DNA of 64,000 nt, taken from the sequence record NC_054922.1. One strand, 5' to 3'. Shown one piece after another: positions 1,909 to 40,161 of this stretch. Source of the stretch: Escherichia phage vB_EcoM_KAW1E185. The stretch's first letter is position 1, and the number at the start of each line of letters is the position of its first letter. Under the pieces are notes generated by a model that was not told the DNA's origin, did no database searches, and saw nothing but the letters and a program-made list of their open reading frames with translations. Both the position numbers and the translations under genes were made by a program.

Positions 1909-2924
1909 TGTGTTGCCTCTACATATAACTGATTTGCATATTGAATAAGTGCTTCACGGTCAGAATCAGTGATGTCTGGAATTGCATTAATATACTCTTC
2001 CATTAATGTCTGAAGCGATTGAACTTCAACTTCTTCACTGTCATCTGACTCGACAGAGTTATCAATCTTTGACACAACTCGTAATGAATGCACAACTTTT
2101 TCTAGTTCAGATTCGAACTTCGTTAGATTTTTATCTACTTCAGTTACTATAACACGTACTGATAGATTTGTAAAATCTTTATAGTCAATTTTTCCTTTAA
2201 ATGGATAATGAATTCTACGATGCCAGGTAGTATTGTTTGGAATAAATTCCATTCGTTCTGTTTCTGTATCAAACATCCAGAACCCACGAGGGTCATTCTC
2301 GTCACCTGCAGTTAGTGTCCATGGTGTCCCAATATATCTGACGTTAGCAGCCTCAGAGATAGTATGGAAGTGACCAGACCACACCTCTTTATAAGTCTTA
2401 AGGAAATCAGGTTCAAGACCGTGAGATTTCATTCCTTTATAAAAATAAAATCCATTCAGCTCCCAGTGACCAACACAAAAAGAAGCAGATGAAGTTTTGA
2501 TGTGTTCAAGAATTTCACCAGTATTTTCTTCACACATCCAAGGAATTAAATCAATCAAACATCCGTCAAAATCTACTGTAGTAGGCTTATCATATACTTT
2601 AACATTATGATATTTAGCCAAAAGCTCAGTAGAGGCATTTGGAGTTAAAGTATTTTTAAAGTGCATATCATGGTTTCCTACAACAGTATGTAGGGTAATA
2701 CCAGCATCATCAAGCATTTGAACTATTTCACGAGCGAACTCCATAGTTTTATGCGTGATTGCTTTTCGCACATCAAAAATATCGCCGTATTGAATCCATG
2801 TAGTAATTCCATTTTTCTTAGAATATTCTATTGCTTGTTTAATTCCATCCAACTGAATGGATTGAACCCACTCATCATCGGCTTTAACGCCTAAATGCCA
2901 ATCACCTAAATTTAAAATTTTCAT
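1905..2924 (-). CDS. 47: Recombination endonuclease subunit gp47 (Mre11/SbcD-like phosphoesterase)
   Basis: 339 aa; N-terminal LGDWHLG and GNHD metallophosphoesterase motifs; adjacent to gp46 and a-gt as in T4. Confidence 0.95.
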   Translation of the reverse strand: MKILNLGDWHLGVKADDEWVQSIQLDGIKQAIEYSKKNGITTWIQYGDIFDVRKAITHKTMEFAREIVQMLDDAGITLHTVVGNHDMHFKNTLTPNASTELLAKYHNVKVYDKPTTVDFDGCLIDLIPWMCEENTGEILEHIKTSSASFCVGHWELNGFYFYKGMKSHGLEPDFLKTYKEVWSGHFHTISEAANVRYIGTPWTLTAGDENDPRGFWMFDTETERMEFIPNNTTWHRRIHYPFKGKIDYKDFTNLSVRVIVTEVDKNLTKFESELEKVVHSLRVVSKIDNSVESDDSEEVEVQSLQTLMEEYINAIPDITDSDREALIQYANQLYVEATQ

Positions 2925-3084
2925 ATATCAAGAACCGTCATTGAAATGCAAAATAAAATTATTGAAATAAATCCATCTGGAGTGCTAAAGAACCCAATCC
3001 AACATGCTCTAGTGAATAGATAAAATGCAAGAAAAAGTATCACATATCCAAGAAATATCATTATATCAAACTCCGTATAAAGCT

Positions 3085-3103
3085 AAAGGGCCGAAGCCCT
3101 TTA
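3085..3103 (-). terminator. Stem-loop with UUCG tetraloop overlapping a-gt stop codon
   Basis: Minus strand AAAGGGC-UUCG-GCCCUUU; weak U-rich tail. Confidence 0.4.
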
Positions 3104-4303
3104 TTTTGTAATAATGTCAAACTGTTCTTTAAAGCAGAAGCTTGAATCTTGATGCTGATACAAAAATTCATATGCTTTTTCACGCTCACGGTCATAAAGA
3201 GCTCGGTCAGATGACAGTTCTTTAATACGTTCAAATGTTGATTCCATATCATTTTCATCAAACCAAATGATACCGCTATCATGCGAGGTCAAAGGAGTAT
3301 TATCAACACGGAATTTTAAATTTTCGCCAGTAGATTTCCAAAATACCGGAATTGTTCCACATGCACCAAGCTCGAGATGAGTATATTCTAAAGAGCGCTG
3401 TAGATATTTTTTATCCAACTTACTCAACTGATAACCAAATCCGGATTTACTCATACGTTCAAGCATTTCGTTATTTACATAACGATCGAGAATTTGCGTT
3501 GGTAAATTAGGAGCAATTTTAATTTGGTCTACTTGATGAAGACGATAATACTCGTATGGAATTCCTTTTTCTTTAATAGGAATGAACGCTGGAGAACGTT
3601 CCAGACCTTCCATAATAGTACTTAGTCCTGCAGGTTTAAGATGTTTTTCATGAAAATCAAACATCTGATAAAAACCTTTCCATGTAGTCGTACGACCAAT
3701 CCAACGGTTGATATTCATGTTAATTTCAGAAACATCTTTCCAGTAGGTTGACCGAACCTTCGCAATATCCATAGGAGGCTGAAAGTTATATACTGTCGGT
3801 GCTTCTTCAATATCATCAAACAGAGAAACTGTTTCAGGATACCATTCTTTCATCAGAACTTTATTAAAATCACCATTATCAGAATGGCTAAAAATAACAT
3901 CAGCTCGACGAACAGTTTCTTCTAATCCCAAATTTCGGCGCAAAGAAAGAGAAGAATGGTCATGTTGATAAACTACAACACGAACAGAAGGTTTAATGTT
4001 ATCAATAATTTTTTTATAGTTATTAATAGTGTCTTCTTCAACCGAAGTAGCAGGAACTGAATTGATAATTAGAATATCACAATCATTTACCAGCTTAAGT
4101 GTTTTATCGTATTCTTTTGCCAATAAAACCGGAATTGAAAATGATTTATAATCATGTGCACAGTTACGAGTAAATGATTTATCTTTAGCATAAACCAAAG
4201 TTACTTCATGACCATTTTTAATAAACCAATCACGTTGCTCGAGCGAGAATTTTGTTACACCACAACCTTCAAGACCTCGAGCCATAAAAATACATACTTT
4301 CAT
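3101..4303 (-). CDS. a-gt: DNA alpha-glucosyltransferase
   Basis: 400 aa, same length as T4 a-gt; position between 47 and 55. Confidence 0.85.
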   Translation of the reverse strand: MKVCIFMARGLEGCGVTKFSLEQRDWFIKNGHEVTLVYAKDKSFTRNCAHDYKSFSIPVLLAKEYDKTLKLVNDCDILIINSVPATSVEEDTINNYKKIIDNIKPSVRVVVYQHDHSSLSLRRNLGLEETVRRADVIFSHSDNGDFNKVLMKEWYPETVSLFDDIEEAPTVYNFQPPMDIAKVRSTYWKDVSEINMNINRWIGRTTTWKGFYQMFDFHEKHLKPAGLSTIMEGLERSPAFIPIKEKGIPYEYYRLHQVDQIKIAPNLPTQILDRYVNNEMLERMSKSGFGYQLSKLDKKYLQRSLEYTHLELGACGTIPVFWKSTGENLKFRVDNTPLTSHDSGIIWFDENDMESTFERIKELSSDRALYDREREKAYEFLYQHQDSSFCFKEQFDIITK

Positions 4304-30421: not shown

Positions 30422-30895
30422 TTATTTGAACGATTTAACGTACTGAATAGAACCTTTACTATTCACAAAGGCAATTTTACCATTTTTGTTATACATGGTA
30501 GCAGTACGTTGATAGCCATAAGTTTGTTTACCAGATTGATAACCAACTAATGCGAAATTATCTTCACCCATTTTATTCTGCTTAGCACGAATGCGTTCAT
30601 GACCATGTGCCATAAGAACCTTAGCATCACCAGTTGCAATGGATCTACGAGTTTTTTCATCTTCAACTGTATTAACAAAGTCGTCAAATGAATCAAATTT
30701 AGCATGAGATTTATTATACAGTTTTCCATCTACTGCATAATTATATCCTTGTACATCCATCTCAACTTCTGTACCATCATCCAGTACAGCAGTGATTTTC
30801 TGTCCTTTTTTAAATTTCAAAAGATCAGTAAAAGATTCAGCAATAATTTGAGAATTAATAGCTGCTTCAGTAATAAATTCTTGATATGTTTTCAT
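30422..30895 (-). CDS. Internal-protein-like capsid-targeted protein (157 aa)
   Basis: N-terminal MKTYQEFITEA resembles the T4 internal-protein capsid targeting sequence. Confidence 0.6.
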   Translation of the reverse strand: MKTYQEFITEAAINSQIIAESFTDLLKFKKGQKITAVLDDGTEVEMDVQGYNYAVDGKLYNKSHAKFDSFDDFVNTVEDEKTRRSIATGDAKVLMAHGHERIRAKQNKMGEDNFALVGYQSGKQTYGYQRTATMYNKNGKIAFVNSKGSIQYVKSFK

Positions 30896-34391: not shown

Positions 34392-34679
34392 AGTATTTCC
34401 TTAGGTTAATTAAGATTTAAAATCCATGAGAGTATTATACTCCGGATAGTTTGTAAACTATTTCAACATCGCCTTTTGCTGCTTTATAACCTTCAGCCCA
34501 AGATATAACCGAGTTTTTATCTGAAGATTCAAATTCTGGCATTGGGCTTTCGCCAATGTTCACACAATATGTTTCTTCATTTTCGTCAAACCAAATAATT
34601 AAAGTAGTCATTTATTTCTCCGTTTCTGTATTTGTTTTGATAAGTCTATAATAACACCGTCCTTGGTGTTTGTACACAA

Positions 34680-34955
34680 TTATTTCATATTATTGAAATA
34701 TTCTTCTGCGATTTCATCGTTATCATGGTAAACTTTAGAAGACAGTTTAACATAACCTTCTGCCGTGAACATATTAATCACAACCTTTACAGTATACCAC
34801 TGACCATCTTCATTACCCATTACTGCGTAAGTTTCAAACATCGGATGATCAGGACCGATAACTTTAATATCATTCACTGTACGACCAAAATCTTCTGAAA
34901 CACATTTCATAAAGAAGTTGAACAGTTCGCCGTAATTATCCATTTCATTCTCCAA
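34680..34955 (-). CDS. Hypothetical acidic protein (91 aa)
   Basis: ORF track; downstream of early promoter. Confidence 0.5.
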   Translation of the reverse strand: MENEMDNYGELFNFFMKCVSEDFGRTVNDIKVIGPDHPMFETYAVMGNEDGQWYTVKVVINMFTAEGYVKLSSKVYHDNDEIAEEYFNNMK

Positions 34956-34986: not shown

Positions 34987-35015
34987 ATAGTACCATGGAA
35001 GAACGGGGATGTAAA
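34987..35015 (-). promoter_or_regulatory. Early promoter
   Basis: Minus strand TTTACA - 17 nt - TACTAT then ACAACTATC. Confidence 0.6.
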
Positions 35016-35137
35016 CCGTTTTGTGAAAAAAATTTTAAAAATTTTTAGGGAATTCTAGGGCGGGGATGGAAAATTAAAAGATAGGATAATATATTATAAA
35101 GGGTAGAAACTAAATGATGCCTAGAGAGGCCCAGAAA

Positions 35138-35166
35138 GGCCTAGATACCAAAAAGCCCCAACCGAA
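35138..35166 (-). terminator. Intrinsic terminator downstream of internal-protein gene
   Basis: Minus strand GCCCCAACC-UUUC-GGUUGGGGC followed by UUUUUGG. Confidence 0.75.
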
Positions 35167-35184
35167 AGGTTGGGGCTAAGAATG

Positions 35185-35658
35185 TTATTTGATTTGTTTA
35201 GCAGACCAAATGCGGTCTTTGATAATTTTTTGGATGTCTTCAACATATTCAAGAGAGTGAACATGTGGGTTATCTTTGAAACTATAAGCACGAGCTAGCT
35301 TTTGGCCTTCAGTTTTGATTACTAAAAGCTCTTTAAGGATAGCTTCATATTTGGAGATAATTCCTTTAACGATATTTTTCTCTTGTGTGACTTTAGGATC
35401 TGCTTTAGGAGCAGGTTTACCCGAAGCCTTTGCAAAAGCAGCGCCAGTAGCAACTAAACTTTTCCAGGCCATACTAACTGCATTCCCTGTAAATCCTTCG
35501 GCTTTCATATCACGAGCAAATTGGAATCGTGATTCATCGGAAGCATCTTTATAGGAATATTTACCCGCGGCAATGGCTGCTTTTGCGACAGCTTGAATTT
35601 CGGTGCTAGATGCTTCATTTAACACCGCTTCATTTAAAAATTGAGCATATGATTTCAT
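35185..35658 (-). CDS. Internal protein III-like capsid-targeted protein (157 aa from MKSYAQF)
   Basis: SD AGGAAA before ATG 35658; N-terminus MKSYAQFLNEA resembles the capsid targeting sequence; ORF-track 216-aa form overruns terminator and late promoter. Confidence 0.6.
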   Translation of the reverse strand: MKSYAQFLNEAVLNEASSTEIQAVAKAAIAAGKYSYKDASDESRFQFARDMKAEGFTGNAVSMAWKSLVATGAAFAKASGKPAPKADPKVTQEKNIVKGIISKYEAILKELLVIKTEGQKLARAYSFKDNPHVHSLEYVEDIQKIIKDRIWSAKQIK

Positions 35659-35696
35659 CTTATTTCCTGTTTTAATTTGTAGATTTAATATACTAA

Positions 35697-35704
35697 TATT
35701 TATA
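35697..35704 (-). promoter_or_regulatory. T4 late promoter
   Basis: Plus tatttata = minus TATAAATA, ~40 nt upstream of ATG. Confidence 0.6.
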
Positions 35705-35733
35705 CCAAAAAGCCCCAACCTTTCGGTCGGGGC
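35705..35733 (-). terminator. Intrinsic terminator ending the tRNA/stable-RNA transcription unit
   Basis: Minus strand GCCCCGACC-GAAA-GGUUGGGGC followed by UUUUUGG. Confidence 0.75.
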
Positions 35734-35744
35734 TAAGCCTTGCG

Positions 35745-36040
35745 GCAACCTTGTCGGGGTTCCACCTGCTAAGGCAAGTGTTTGTACGAAACGCCGGGAT
35801 TCGAACCCGGTTATTAAGTAGTTGACGCTACTCAATATTTTTAAAAGGCCATATCTCGACCATATCCGAACGTTCCGTCAAAAACGCTACTCGGCTTACG
35901 GCAAAGATATTTCCTCGAATCGATAATTCGGTGCGCCGTTTCTGCTGTGATGTAAGAGGGCATCAATAAACGCAAAGATTATTAACGCAATTCCTTACTC
36001 AGGGAACATCAGTCCGACGACTTACCGGTAGCGACCCGGT
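35745..36040 (-). ncRNA. Putative stable structured RNA(s) downstream of tRNA cluster (possible analogue of T4 species 1/2 RNAs)
   Basis: No credible ORF; tRNA-like T-arm CCGGGUUCGAAUCCCGG near 35795-35811 and several further stems; boundaries approximate. Confidence 0.35.
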
Positions 36041-36043
36041 TTC

Positions 36044-36394
36044 TTAATATTCTTTTAAAGCATCAATCTGTTTACGGCGTTCACGCCATAAATCAATTGC
36101 TTCATACGCGGATTCAGCATTTCGAATTAGCCGGCATTTATGTAAAGACTTATGATTTTGATATTGTGTAGATAACGGAATTTTATCTAAAAGGTCTTTA
36201 CGTTCAAAGTATTCGTAACCATCTAAGCCAAATGAACGATTTTTGAGAAATTGCCAATGACCAAATTCGTTTTGAATATAAATATAATCCGCATGTTGAT
36301 AAAGTAAATTAATTTCACGAAATGAGATATGTTTTTCATATTCATTGAAGTAAAATGTTAAATCATGAACTACTAAATAAACATTACCTTTCAT
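36044..36394 (-). CDS. Hypothetical protein (116 aa) inside the RNA gene region
   Basis: SD GAGGAAAA 5 nt upstream of ATG 36394. Confidence 0.5.
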   Translation of the reverse strand: MKGNVYLVVHDLTFYFNEYEKHISFREINLLYQHADYIYIQNEFGHWQFLKNRSFGLDGYEYFERKDLLDKIPLSTQYQNHKSLHKCRLIRNAESAYEAIDLWRERRKQIDALKEY

Positions 36395-37014: not shown

Positions 37015-37104
37015 TGGCGGAGGCGATAGGATTTGAACCTATGAGTCGCCGGAGCGACTGCCGGTTTTCAAGACCGGTGCATTAAACCACTCTGCCACGC
37101 CTCC
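37015..37104 (-). tRNA. tRNA-Ser (anticodon UGA), long variable arm
   Basis: 90 nt; anticodon loop CUUGAAA. Confidence 0.8.
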
Positions 37105-37110
37105 AAATAT

Positions 37111-37761
37111 TTATATATTGTTAATTTGATTTAGAATTCTTTTTGCTTGAGTATGACTTACGCCAATATGCTTAGCATATTTAGACAATTCGCCACGTTT
37201 AGAAAAATCATATAATTTAGAAATTTCTATTCTTCTTTTTCTTTCATCCGCAGAAACTTTTGCTTCGTTTGCTTTTGCTATTTTACGTTTAGCTTCTTGA
37301 GAATGAGTTTTACCAGCAAAGCCATTCTTCATTAATCCATTTGAAGACCATCCTTTTAATTTTCCGTTAGAATGTGCCTTTTTAACACCCAATGAAATTA
37401 ATTCGCGTTGCTGATCTGTCATAGGATAATTATTTATATGGTCCCATCCACCTTCACCTCCAAGTTTTAAATTATACACATCTGGTCTATTTAAAAACTC
37501 TTCTGTGACAATATTTTTCTCGGCTTCAAGCATAGATTCTTTATCGTCAAAATACTCTAATATTTCTTTAGAAAAATTTTCTATACCATATTTATCTTGG
37601 GCTCTTTTTAATAATTTACCAGAACCCATATATCCATCATCTAAATTTTCGGTAGAATGCACACCAATATAAATTTTATTATTAATTTTATTTGTTATTT
37701 TATAAAGATAAAAATGCATATCAGTCCCTAATAAAGAACTGAGCGTCTCACGACGAGTCAT
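37111..37761 (-). CDS. segB: GIY-YIG homing endonuclease (SegB-like) inserted within the tRNA cluster
   Basis: 216 aa; FYLYKITN...KIYIGV GIY-YIG motif; basic C-terminal DNA-binding tail; flanked by tRNA genes. Confidence 0.8.
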   Translation of the reverse strand: MTRRETLSSLLGTDMHFYLYKITNKINNKIYIGVHSTENLDDGYMGSGKLLKRAQDKYGIENFSKEILEYFDDKESMLEAEKNIVTEEFLNRPDVYNLKLGGEGGWDHINNYPMTDQQRELISLGVKKAHSNGKLKGWSSNGLMKNGFAGKTHSQEAKRKIAKANEAKVSADERKRRIEISKLYDFSKRGELSKYAKHIGVSHTQAKRILNQINNI

Positions 37762-37765
37762 AAAT

Positions 37766-37839
<74 letters not shown>

Positions 37840-39554: not shown

Positions 39555-39788
39555 TTATTTTTTACGAAAAATTGATTTATATTTATCAGCCCATTTCTCG
39601 ATGACTTTTTCTGGTCCATAGATAACAAAATAATCACCAAACTCTTCACCACCGAGTTGACCGAAATTATCTAATGCATCACGAAGAACTCCATGAGGCA
39701 TTTCGCCCATTTTATCTTTCTTACCAATGTAAATAAACTCAACTTTTACATCAGCAGCTTCAGCAATAAATTCTTGATACGTTTTCAT
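39555..39788 (-). CDS. Internal-protein-like capsid-targeted small protein (77 aa from MKTYQEFIAEA)
   Basis: Capsid-targeting-like N-terminus; early promoter directly upstream. Confidence 0.6.
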   Translation of the reverse strand: MKTYQEFIAEAADVKVEFIYIGKKDKMGEMPHGVLRDALDNFGQLGGEEFGDYFVIYGPEKVIEKWADKYKSIFRKK

Positions 39789-39873: not shown

Positions 39874-40161
39874 TTACAAAAGATTTTTAGCAATAATCTT
39901 GAGATGTGCTGCAGAAATGTGTTTAGCTTTAAACAACGCAGTTTCTTCGGCAGGAGAGATAACGATTGTAGCACCATCCTTTTTAGCAGACCACCCATCA
40001 CCTAGGTAAACAGTACCTTTGATTTCTTCGCCATCAACCAGACTAATCATTGGTTTACCTTCTCGTCCTTTATTTGCTTTAATAACTTCAGAAGTAAGAG
40101 TAGCTTCGGTAATGGTAGAAACCGGGGTAGTTGTAGAAGTAAATTCTTTAAATGTTTTCAT
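39874..40161 (-). CDS. Internal protein I-like capsid-targeted protein (95 aa)
   Basis: N-terminus MKTFKEFTSTT; adjacent to 57B where T4 places ipI. Confidence 0.6.
   Translation of the reverse strand: MKTFKEFTSTTTPVSTITEATLTSEVIKANKGREGKPMISLVDGEEIKGTVYLGDGWSAKKDGATIVISPAEETALFKAKHISAAHLKIIAKNLL

Follow-up and report, generated by a model that had tools for sequence, protein, structure and literature searches.

PeSL elements (promoter-early stem-loops) are stem-loop terminators fused to an early promoter; copies of them flank accessory open reading frames (ORFs) in T4-type phages, and their recombination removes or adds these ORFs and forms mini-circles (Arbiol et al., 2010, PMC2839356; Comeau, Arbiol and Krisch, 2014, PMC4122927). 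At the ipI locus (Repoila et al., 1994, EMBO J 13:4181), as it is summarized in PMC4122927 and PMC9026906, unrelated small basic proteins that have only a capsid-targeting sequence (CTS) in common swap between close phages, and these accounts propose that this fits the set of injected anti-defence proteins to the host. As a first-response counter-defence, T-even phages inject their internal proteins: GmrSD is blocked by IPI, and certain E. coli strains are hosts on which IPIII is required (PMC3012670, PMC9391042). We analyzed a stretch of 64,000 nt from Escherichia phage vB_EcoM_KAW1E185 (NC_054922.1; the whole stretch is called the window here), a T4-like phage of the genus Tequatrovirus, in which two near-identical hairpins flank a gene, here named gene A, between rnaC and e.8. 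We put the probability at roughly three in four that the two hairpins are paralogous copies of a Rho-independent terminator around a late CTS gene and that they double as a local recombination joint.

All genes of this neighbourhood lie on the minus strand, and transfer of the T4 annotation gives the order of transcription as tRNA cluster, rnaD, rnaC, e.8, e.7, e.6 onward. The features that form the locus are the following:
35738..36040, minus strand: rnaD/rnaC block (species 2 / species 1 stable RNA), 303 nt, 98.7% identical to T4
35702..35737, minus strand: upstream repeat copy with its stem-loop at 35711-35734; minus-strand RNA AGCCCCGACC-GAAA-GGUUGGGGCU, then UUUUGGUAU
35697..35704, minus strand: core of a predicted T4-type late promoter, TATAAATA, from a motif scan, 38 nt upstream of the gene A ATG
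35185..35658, minus strand: gene A, 157 aa, phrog_2280, between rnaC and e.8
35145..35180, minus strand: downstream repeat copy with its stem-loop at 35154-35177; minus-strand RNA AGCCCCAACC-UUUC-GGUUGGGGCU, then UUUUGGUAU
34680..34943, minus strand: e.8 homologue, 87 aa, phrog_2678, the conserved right-hand anchor of the variable locus

This arrangement resembles PeSL in several respects: a terminator stem-loop is joined to a promoter between genes, a small accessory ORF stands between two such copies, and a closely related phage has just one copy and no ORF. In both cases the proposed effect of recombination between the copies is loss or gain of the ORF, with transcription of the neighbours kept insulated. 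It differs from PeSL in the promoter, which is a gp55-type late motif (TATAAATA) here and sigma70-like and early in PeSL; in its confinement to one locus with one or two copies per genome, whereas PeSLs are dispersed through hyperplastic regions; and in the length of the conserved unit, 36 nt against ~100 nt. A promoter scan reported no -35/-10 pair beside the upstream hairpin. Mini-circles are known for PeSL, whereas here genomes alone were compared. By analogy, the local shuffling described below would belong to the style already known from PeSL and the internal-protein loci.

The earlier note on this DNA, made from the letters alone, had reported two 22-nt hairpins at 35145-35166 and 35712-35733. 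Both sequences are present as quoted and the second position is right; the first hairpin actually lies at 35155-35176, 10 nt from where it had been placed, and position 35145 is the start of a larger repeat. The real stems have 10 bp each (35154-35177 and 35711-35734), with seven G-C pairs and 4-nt loops, and are part of a 36-nt direct repeat (35145-35180 and 35702-35737, 86% identity) whose copies lie 557 bp apart. Flanking sequence outside the stems, 10 nt (ATACCAAAAA) and 4 nt (TAAG), also belongs to the repeat. On the minus strand the whole upstream element reads cuuAGCCCCGACCgaaaGGUUGGGGCUuuuugguauaaaua and the whole downstream element cuuAGCCCCAACCuuucGGUUGGGGCUuuuugguaucua; the copies differ at five positions, namely one stem base and the four loop bases, GAAA in one copy and the reverse complement TTTC in the other. 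The pattern GCCCCAACCNNNNGGTTGGGGC, with up to 3 mismatches allowed, has only two sites in the 64 kb, compared to 0.00 expected from 100 shuffles. Since the identity continues into the non-stem flanks (CTTA 5', GGTAT 3'), the two copies point to common descent rather than convergence.

Comparison with T4 defines the boundaries of the variable segment. T4 has rnaC, exactly one hairpin and e.8, and its rnaC-e.8 interval holds no gene. The T4 hairpin is identical to the upstream copy of the window (same 24-nt sequence and flank), and it joins the two outer flanks of the window, the e.8-side flank on the left and the rnaC-side flank on the right. Window and T4 thus differ by a 557-bp indel bounded by the repeat, and the alignments place the breakpoint anywhere inside TTAGCCCC...GGGGCTTTTTGGTAT.

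Across 2.1 kb the closest match to the window is Shigella phage Sf21 (96.7%), and 778 phage records match. We compared gene content between the hairpins in a survey of 24 loci from GenBank and IMG/VR (L-numbered loci include IMG/VR genomes), as the earlier note had proposed, and found that in tequatroviruses gene A and a second gene, B, are each present or absent. Neither is present in T4 and G2540-3, and T6 likewise lacks A; the window, Sf21, a48, L006 and L007 have A only, RB14 has B only, and A is followed by B in KK4, HMD-9, the IMG/VR genomes L008, L015 and L009 and also in Mosigvirus PhAPEC2. The hairpin forms five types of joint (rnaC-A, rnaC-B, rnaC-e.8, A-B and A-e.8), while the B-e.8 joint carries B's own terminator, CCCTATC-taaat-GATAGGG, which has the 3' GGGCTTTTTGGTATCTAGG in common with the other hairpins. 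In the phage collection, A occurs in 510 records, B in 165 and a contiguous A-hairpin-B junction in 128; these three counts are the reliable ones, as the junction BLAST merges pieces ~550-700 nt apart and a count of empty genomes is not derivable from it. About two thirds of the matching GenBank records have A, and in all 510 records it stands at one place per record. The suggestion that the hairpin pair is the footprint of cassette exchange thus holds locally, with T4 lacking the gene and keeping one hairpin and with four A/B combinations, and is not supported for a dispersed element or the import of a roaming cassette.

That both hairpins act as terminators, also claimed earlier, was supported by their sequence, their folding, compensatory changes in relatives and their position in the genome, all of which are predictive features. 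On the transcribed minus strand a U-run (UUUUUGGUAU) stands directly 3' of both stems; the plus strand, which reads ...GGGGCTAAG, has no T-run behind them. In addition, the upstream element has a C-A mismatch on the plus strand where the minus-strand RNA pairs G-U, and both observations fit a function on the minus-strand transcript. The hairpin pair were the top two terminator-like sites of a 12-kb scan, and among the 13 terminator candidates of the entire window this pair alone has the same sequence. Folding energies of the two hairpins are -21.5 (z = -3.8) and -19.7 (z = -4.5) kcal/mol. Covariation was determined with 13 distinct hairpin variants collected from 21 related loci: 93% of the stem cells were paired, three of the ten pairs were changed on both sides (C-G to G-C, C-G to U-A and A-U to G-C), and the covariation score was above 500 of 500 shuffles and every slid register control. 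No Rfam family matches the hairpins.

The transcript of the T4 tRNA cluster is reported to cross the whole cluster and to end past the gene for species I RNA (PMC2330249), and the one copy of the hairpin in T4 sits at that end point, ~50 nt past rnaC. The upstream hairpin of the window is predicted to be the terminator of the tRNA/rnaD/rnaC transcription unit. It would be the orthologue of the terminator of the T4 tRNA-species II/I RNA unit (Broida and Abelson, 1985, as cited in PMC2330249) and differs from it, as far as that citation goes, in being followed by a late promoter motif and an extra gene and in having a second copy. The downstream hairpin is the predicted terminator of gene A. We infer termination at both hairpins and late-promoter activity between them from these sequence features; in themselves the hairpins pose no challenge to current understanding and are an ordinary terminator pair.

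The late motif is tightly linked to the upstream copy: the first three bases (TAT) of TATAAATA are the last three of the repeat, and the promoter adjoins the upstream U-run. The motif is perfect and is kept after the upstream hairpin in all A-bearing relatives, which predicts late expression of gene A. On the other side of the gene two further features follow:
35120..35144, minus strand: second small hairpin, CUAGGCC-UUUCUG-GGCCUcuCUAG, directly past the predicted gene A terminator and part of the e.8-side flank
34987..35015, minus strand: early-promoter-like site TTTACA-17-TACTAT (with TG), upstream of e.8 and ~135 nt downstream of the downstream hairpin

The small hairpin at 35120-35144 is kept in T4 and all relatives. 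PMC4122927 quotes TTTACW-N17-TAYWAT as the promoter consensus of the PST/T4 PeSLs, and the early-promoter-like site fits it.

Homologues of A occupy the same slot, right after the RNA-cluster terminator and TATAAATA, in four other groups, represented by Mosigvirus PhAPEC2, Dhakavirus ESCO10, Klebsiella Jiaodavirus vB_Kpn_AM_K5 and the distant IMG/VR loci L010, L012 and L014. In several of these groups the downstream terminator is quite different (GCCCC-gtct-GGGGC, or a longer hairpin), and identical twin hairpins are therefore not needed for expression of gene A. Because of this synteny gene A is most likely an old resident that T4 lost, and the simplest reading is that it predates the Tequatrovirus radiation. 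The commonest event would then be loss of a resident gene between repeats rather than import of a roaming cassette, and deletion between direct repeats is the best account of why T4, T6 and RB14 lack A. T4 deletes and amplifies between microhomologies of 6-10 bp (PMC9391042), so that a 36-nt repeat would be an ample substrate.

Further genes were seen at the same locus in other Tevenvirinae. Gene C encodes a membrane-like protein of 184 aa (MKLLKYLSW...) that is not of the CTS type, and gene D encodes 205 aa of which the first 17 residues (MKTYNEFLNESVLNEAG) match gene A and the remainder is just 26-29% identical. The cassette order is A-C in L012 and L014 and C-D in L011 and L013; the extra cassettes lie at 3326-3880 in L012, at 3220-3879 in L014 and at 2636-3190 and 3260-3877 in L011 and L013. 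In the ESCO10 record (L083, OM386655.1) the deposited annotation appears shifted or mis-transferred, with 'RNA ligase 2' as the name of the e.8 homologue and with head, portal and tail names on small ORFs close to the tRNAs, and its product names are untrustworthy.

The two hairpins of a genome tend to resemble each other. PhAPEC2 has an unusual GCCCCTTCC arm in both copies, and in L012 and L014 both copies read GGCCCTTCC...GGTTGGGCC and flank a two-gene block, with stems GGCCC/GGGCC as opposed to GCCCC/GGGGC in Tequatrovirus. Sf21 has the variant AGCCCCAGCC-gaaa-GGTTGGGGCT as its downstream copy, and L007 and T4_ev240 have it as their upstream copy. This co-variation within genomes and the change of position of the Sf21 variant suggest concerted evolution of the terminator pair. 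A second copy of the locus' own variant (AGGCCCTTCCgaaaGGTTGGGCC) stands ~115 nt upstream of e.8 in L010 (3885), L012 (3885) and L014 (3884); L010 has no ORF of the length of C and carries another variant, GCCCCTTCC, as its upstream copy.

Comparison of the downstream hairpins showed that three variants each occur in both orientations:
Sf21, AGCCCCAGCCgaaaGGTTGGGGCT: its exact reverse complement is the a48 copy
L006, AGCCCCGACCaaaaGGTTGGGGCT: its exact reverse complement is the copy of ES12, BCH953P4 and T4_ev240
ESCO10, AGCCCCAACCgaaaGGTTGGGGCT: its exact reverse complement is the downstream copy of the window

After a flip, what was a G-U pair of the RNA is an A-C mismatch. The perfect downstream stem of the window differs from the a48 state by one base, which restores pairing, and the window's downstream hairpin reads as a flipped and then repaired copy. 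Among 330 full-length matches, only seven records reach at least 95% identity to the window's 81-nt segment. The flip was confirmed in a48, ES12 and one of the two BCH953P4 records; T4_ev240 is flipped too, and ESCO10 is unflipped. For ES26 and the second BCH953P4 record a flip is indicated by the identical score, which gives a total of about six flipped records (~2%). The exact downstream variant of the window is absent from the phage collection, where a48 is the best match (97.5%), and no flip of the upstream copy was seen among the loci compared.

Quasipalindrome mutagenesis was reportedly first described in T4 rII, by Ripley in 1982. Inversion of a loop in one step with homogenization of the arms is a known signature of template switching at inverted repeats (Monttinen and Loytynoja, 2022, PMC8794818; PMC8604942). 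The hairpins described here are like these cases in that the loop and the stem asymmetry would be reverse-complemented in one step, by which stems are sometimes perfected; they differ in that the change recurs at a phage terminator in natural isolates, with three variants in both orientations. The repeated orientation flips of the downstream hairpin are a new detail and a clear natural example of terminator-hairpin inversion.

The product of gene A starts with MKSYAQFLNE/A and is basic, with an isoelectric point (pI) of 9.5 and 21 Lys residues. Mutagenesis of the IPIII CTS assigned residues 4 and 7 to targeting and residues 8 and 10 ([IL]-x-E) to cleavage by gp21 (PMC9026906). Gene A keeps these key residues as Y4, F7, L8 and E10 (the CTS of T4 and of the window is MKTYQEFI[AT]E/A). 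As its first ten residues fit the T4 capsid-targeting sequence, protein A is probably packaged into the head and injected, and we regard it as a putative internal protein. Gene B (187 aa, starting with MKTYAEFLTE/A) has only the CTS motif in common with A (8 of 11 residues), and both proteins are Lys-rich with a pI of ~9.5. In this the locus is like the ipI locus as described in the accounts cited above; compared to those descriptions it differs in its place (rnaC-e.8 here, 57B-ipI-trna.4 there), in its joints, which are terminator hairpins here, and in that A, B and D are virion candidates by their sequence.

The label 'IPIII-like', which had been given to gene A, was not upheld. The gene is not ipIII, because it lies between rnaC and e.8, and T4 ipIII lies 4 kb further on, beyond gene e. 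BLASTP found no detectable similarity to the protein at the ipIII position of the window (E = 3.5), and IPIII homology was rejected; a CTS-like N-terminus is all that is common to the two. The CTS motif opens just three ORFs of the window in a motif scan, the other two at classical ip loci. Searches of Pfam, NCBIfam, PHROG names and PDB sequences gave no function for gene A, and its homologues in the databases are all named hypothetical. An AlphaFold model of the protein is all-helical (mean predicted local distance difference test, pLDDT, 72), and in it a disordered Lys/Pro linker connects a four-helix domain at the N-terminus to a helical hairpin at the C-terminus; it has no significant match in PDB and matches only its own orthologues in BFVD. 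In T4_ev240 (L081 447-740, transcribed orientation) a frameshift cuts gene A to 97 aa, which suggests that the gene is dispensable under some propagation conditions.

Among the internal-protein loci of the window, the protein at the ipIII/ipII position (30422-30895, minus strand) is a DUF7412 protein and not T4 IPIII. The ipI locus carries a T4-type IPI (PF11634) and a second, 77-aa CTS-bearing ORF (39555-39788 and 39874-40161, minus strand). Altogether, the window phage has at least four CTS-type genes at three loci.

We propose the following mechanism. The upstream copy would stop the tRNA-rnaD-rnaC transcript, and its U-tract would lead straight into TATAAATA, which would drive a monocistronic late mRNA for gene A; the downstream copy would end this mRNA ahead of the early promoter of e.8. 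The 36-nt direct repeat with its 557-bp spacing would at the same time be a substrate for the very active recombination and replication machinery of T4. Recombination or slippage between the copies would remove gene A precisely and leave one hairpin (the state of T4, T6 and RB14), and the reverse reaction could in principle re-insert it. With the same hairpin as the joint to cassette B, the locus would resemble a small stack of late-gene cassettes that plug in and encode candidate injected proteins. The palindromic stem would let the downstream hairpin invert, likely by template switching or by recombination between the arms.

A self-contained unit of promoter, ORF and terminator between conserved genes is also what defines the likeness to the morons of lambdoid phages (PMC2839356, PMC1524935). 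The gene A unit differs from these in having the orientation and composition of the surrounding genome, in its predicted late lytic rather than prophage expression, and in being bounded by homologous repeats instead of illegitimate junctions. The design of terminator, late promoter, CTS-ORF and terminator would keep cargo genes transcriptionally insulated yet easily deleted. The CTS-bearing genes at this locus (A in ~500 sequenced phages, B in ~165), annotated only as hypothetical, appear to be gained and lost as units, and with A, B and D as candidate injected proteins at a second variable locus they are concrete candidates for new anti-defence proteins.

Several observations weigh against a joint role of the hairpins in expression and recombination. 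The repeat that bounds cassette B has only ~12 nt (GGGCTTTTTRGT), and B ends in a different terminator of its own, so that an identical hairpin is not required for cassette turnover. Alleles of gene A have 77% nucleotide identity (up to 23% different), compared to 93-98% in the flanks (2-7% different), and this divergence starts inside the gene, between the conserved CTS-coding 5' end and a conserved 3' end of ~70 nt; replacement of alleles therefore need not use the hairpins. Gene A was never found at another locus, so that re-insertion or transfer is hypothetical; only its loss is demonstrated. Selection for one efficient terminator could contribute to the likeness of the two copies, and the putative terminator, promoter and packaging roles rest on sequence rules.

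Gene A could also be a mobile regulatory cassette of the PeSL type that is excised as a mini-circle with one chimeric hairpin, packaged and integrated into other hairpins or loci. Entry of such a circle into a one-hairpin genome would give both the direct repeat and the empty site of T4, and it would fit that the same variant stands upstream in some phages and downstream in others, that copies co-vary within genomes and that the order differs between genera (A-C in L012/L014, C-D in L011/L013); PeSL mini-circles have been demonstrated in RB49/phi1 (PMC2839356). We nevertheless consider this unlikely, as the promoter is of the late and not of the sigma70-type early kind, as gene A stays at one syntenic place in the 510 records and the four other groups, and as the hairpin is confined to one locus. 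The earlier idea of a dispersed recombination element fails on the same point: in T4-like genomes the search of the window and of relatives found the hairpin at this locus only, and four T4-like IMG/VR contigs (two complete, two partial) have exactly two matches each, ~535-560 nt apart. A dispersed repeat family was rejected, with two copies in the 64-kb window and otherwise unrelated contigs in the IMG/VR scan. If, on the other hand, the empty T4-like site were ancestral, the lineage of the window would have gained gene A by insertion at the rnaC terminator. T4, T6 and G2540-3 all lack A, and an indel bounded exactly by a repeat gives no direction from its junction alone; this polarity is still very improbable in view of the homologues in the same slot in four further groups, some with a different downstream terminator, and of the two thirds of matching GenBank records that have A.

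The resemblance of the hairpins might instead be due to convergence or selection only, with indels arising from unrelated microhomology or from co-conversion with a homing endonuclease out of the tRNA region. Stems of the type GCCCC...GGGGC with U-runs are indeed generic: the other ~55 IMG/VR matches are unrelated contigs carrying generic terminators, and BLAST matches elsewhere are partial and generic, such as the bidirectional terminators of the uvsW region of Klebsiella phages (PMC1524935). Cassette B turns over on ~12 nt of homology, T4 needs only 6-10 bp, and a GIY-YIG endonuclease gene lies 1.4 kb away, in a region whose preferential inheritance SegB drives (PMC2330249). However, the identity extends to the non-stem flanks, the breakpoint of the A indel in the T4 comparison lies within the 36-nt repeat, one intact hairpin stands between the same flanks at all other joints examined, A-less or A-bearing, and distant genera end A with a quite different hairpin, so that identity is not functionally required. 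We therefore give convergence little credence. The paralogous terminator pair with a role as recombination joint is the reading we prefer. A bolder version would make the rnaC-e.8 interval a second, unrecognized dock for internal-protein cassettes and the hairpin a site of active and reversible recombination, in which endonuclease VII or other phage enzymes might process the cruciform or hairpin. Genes A, B and D and the non-CTS gene C, as late capsid-targeted anti-defence genes, would then leave as circles, flip, change their order and pass between phages that infect the same cell, with the flips of the downstream hairpin as a by-product; this is speculative and, in our estimation, doubtful.

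Transfer from the T4 annotation places rnaC at ~35783-35921 and rnaD at ~35928-36047. Their homologues match no Rfam family, even at E<=1; these long-known species 2/1 phage RNAs have no covariance model. Between tRNA-Arg and rnaD lies an ORF of 116 aa (36044-36394, minus strand; phrog_3355, function unknown), which is present in Sf21, KK4 and PhAPEC2 and absent from T4, RB14, a48 and HMD-9 and is thus a further presence/absence polymorphism within the stable-RNA transcription unit. The slot next to e.8 is cassette-like as well: an ORF of 58 aa (34435-34611, minus strand; phrog_5461) stands in place of T4 e.7 (111 aa), L007 has both genes, and KK4, L008 and L015 have neither. The GIY-YIG/NUMOD3 homing-endonuclease ORF (37111-37761, minus strand, 216 aa) lies between tRNA-Ser (37015-37104) and tRNA-Gly (37766-37839) and fills the exact place of tRNA-Pro in T4 and Sf21; the window lacks tRNA-Pro. 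The related segB of T4 is found elsewhere in the cluster, between tRNA-Arg and tRNA-Ile. It appears that a homing-endonuclease gene inserted here and took the place of a tRNA gene.

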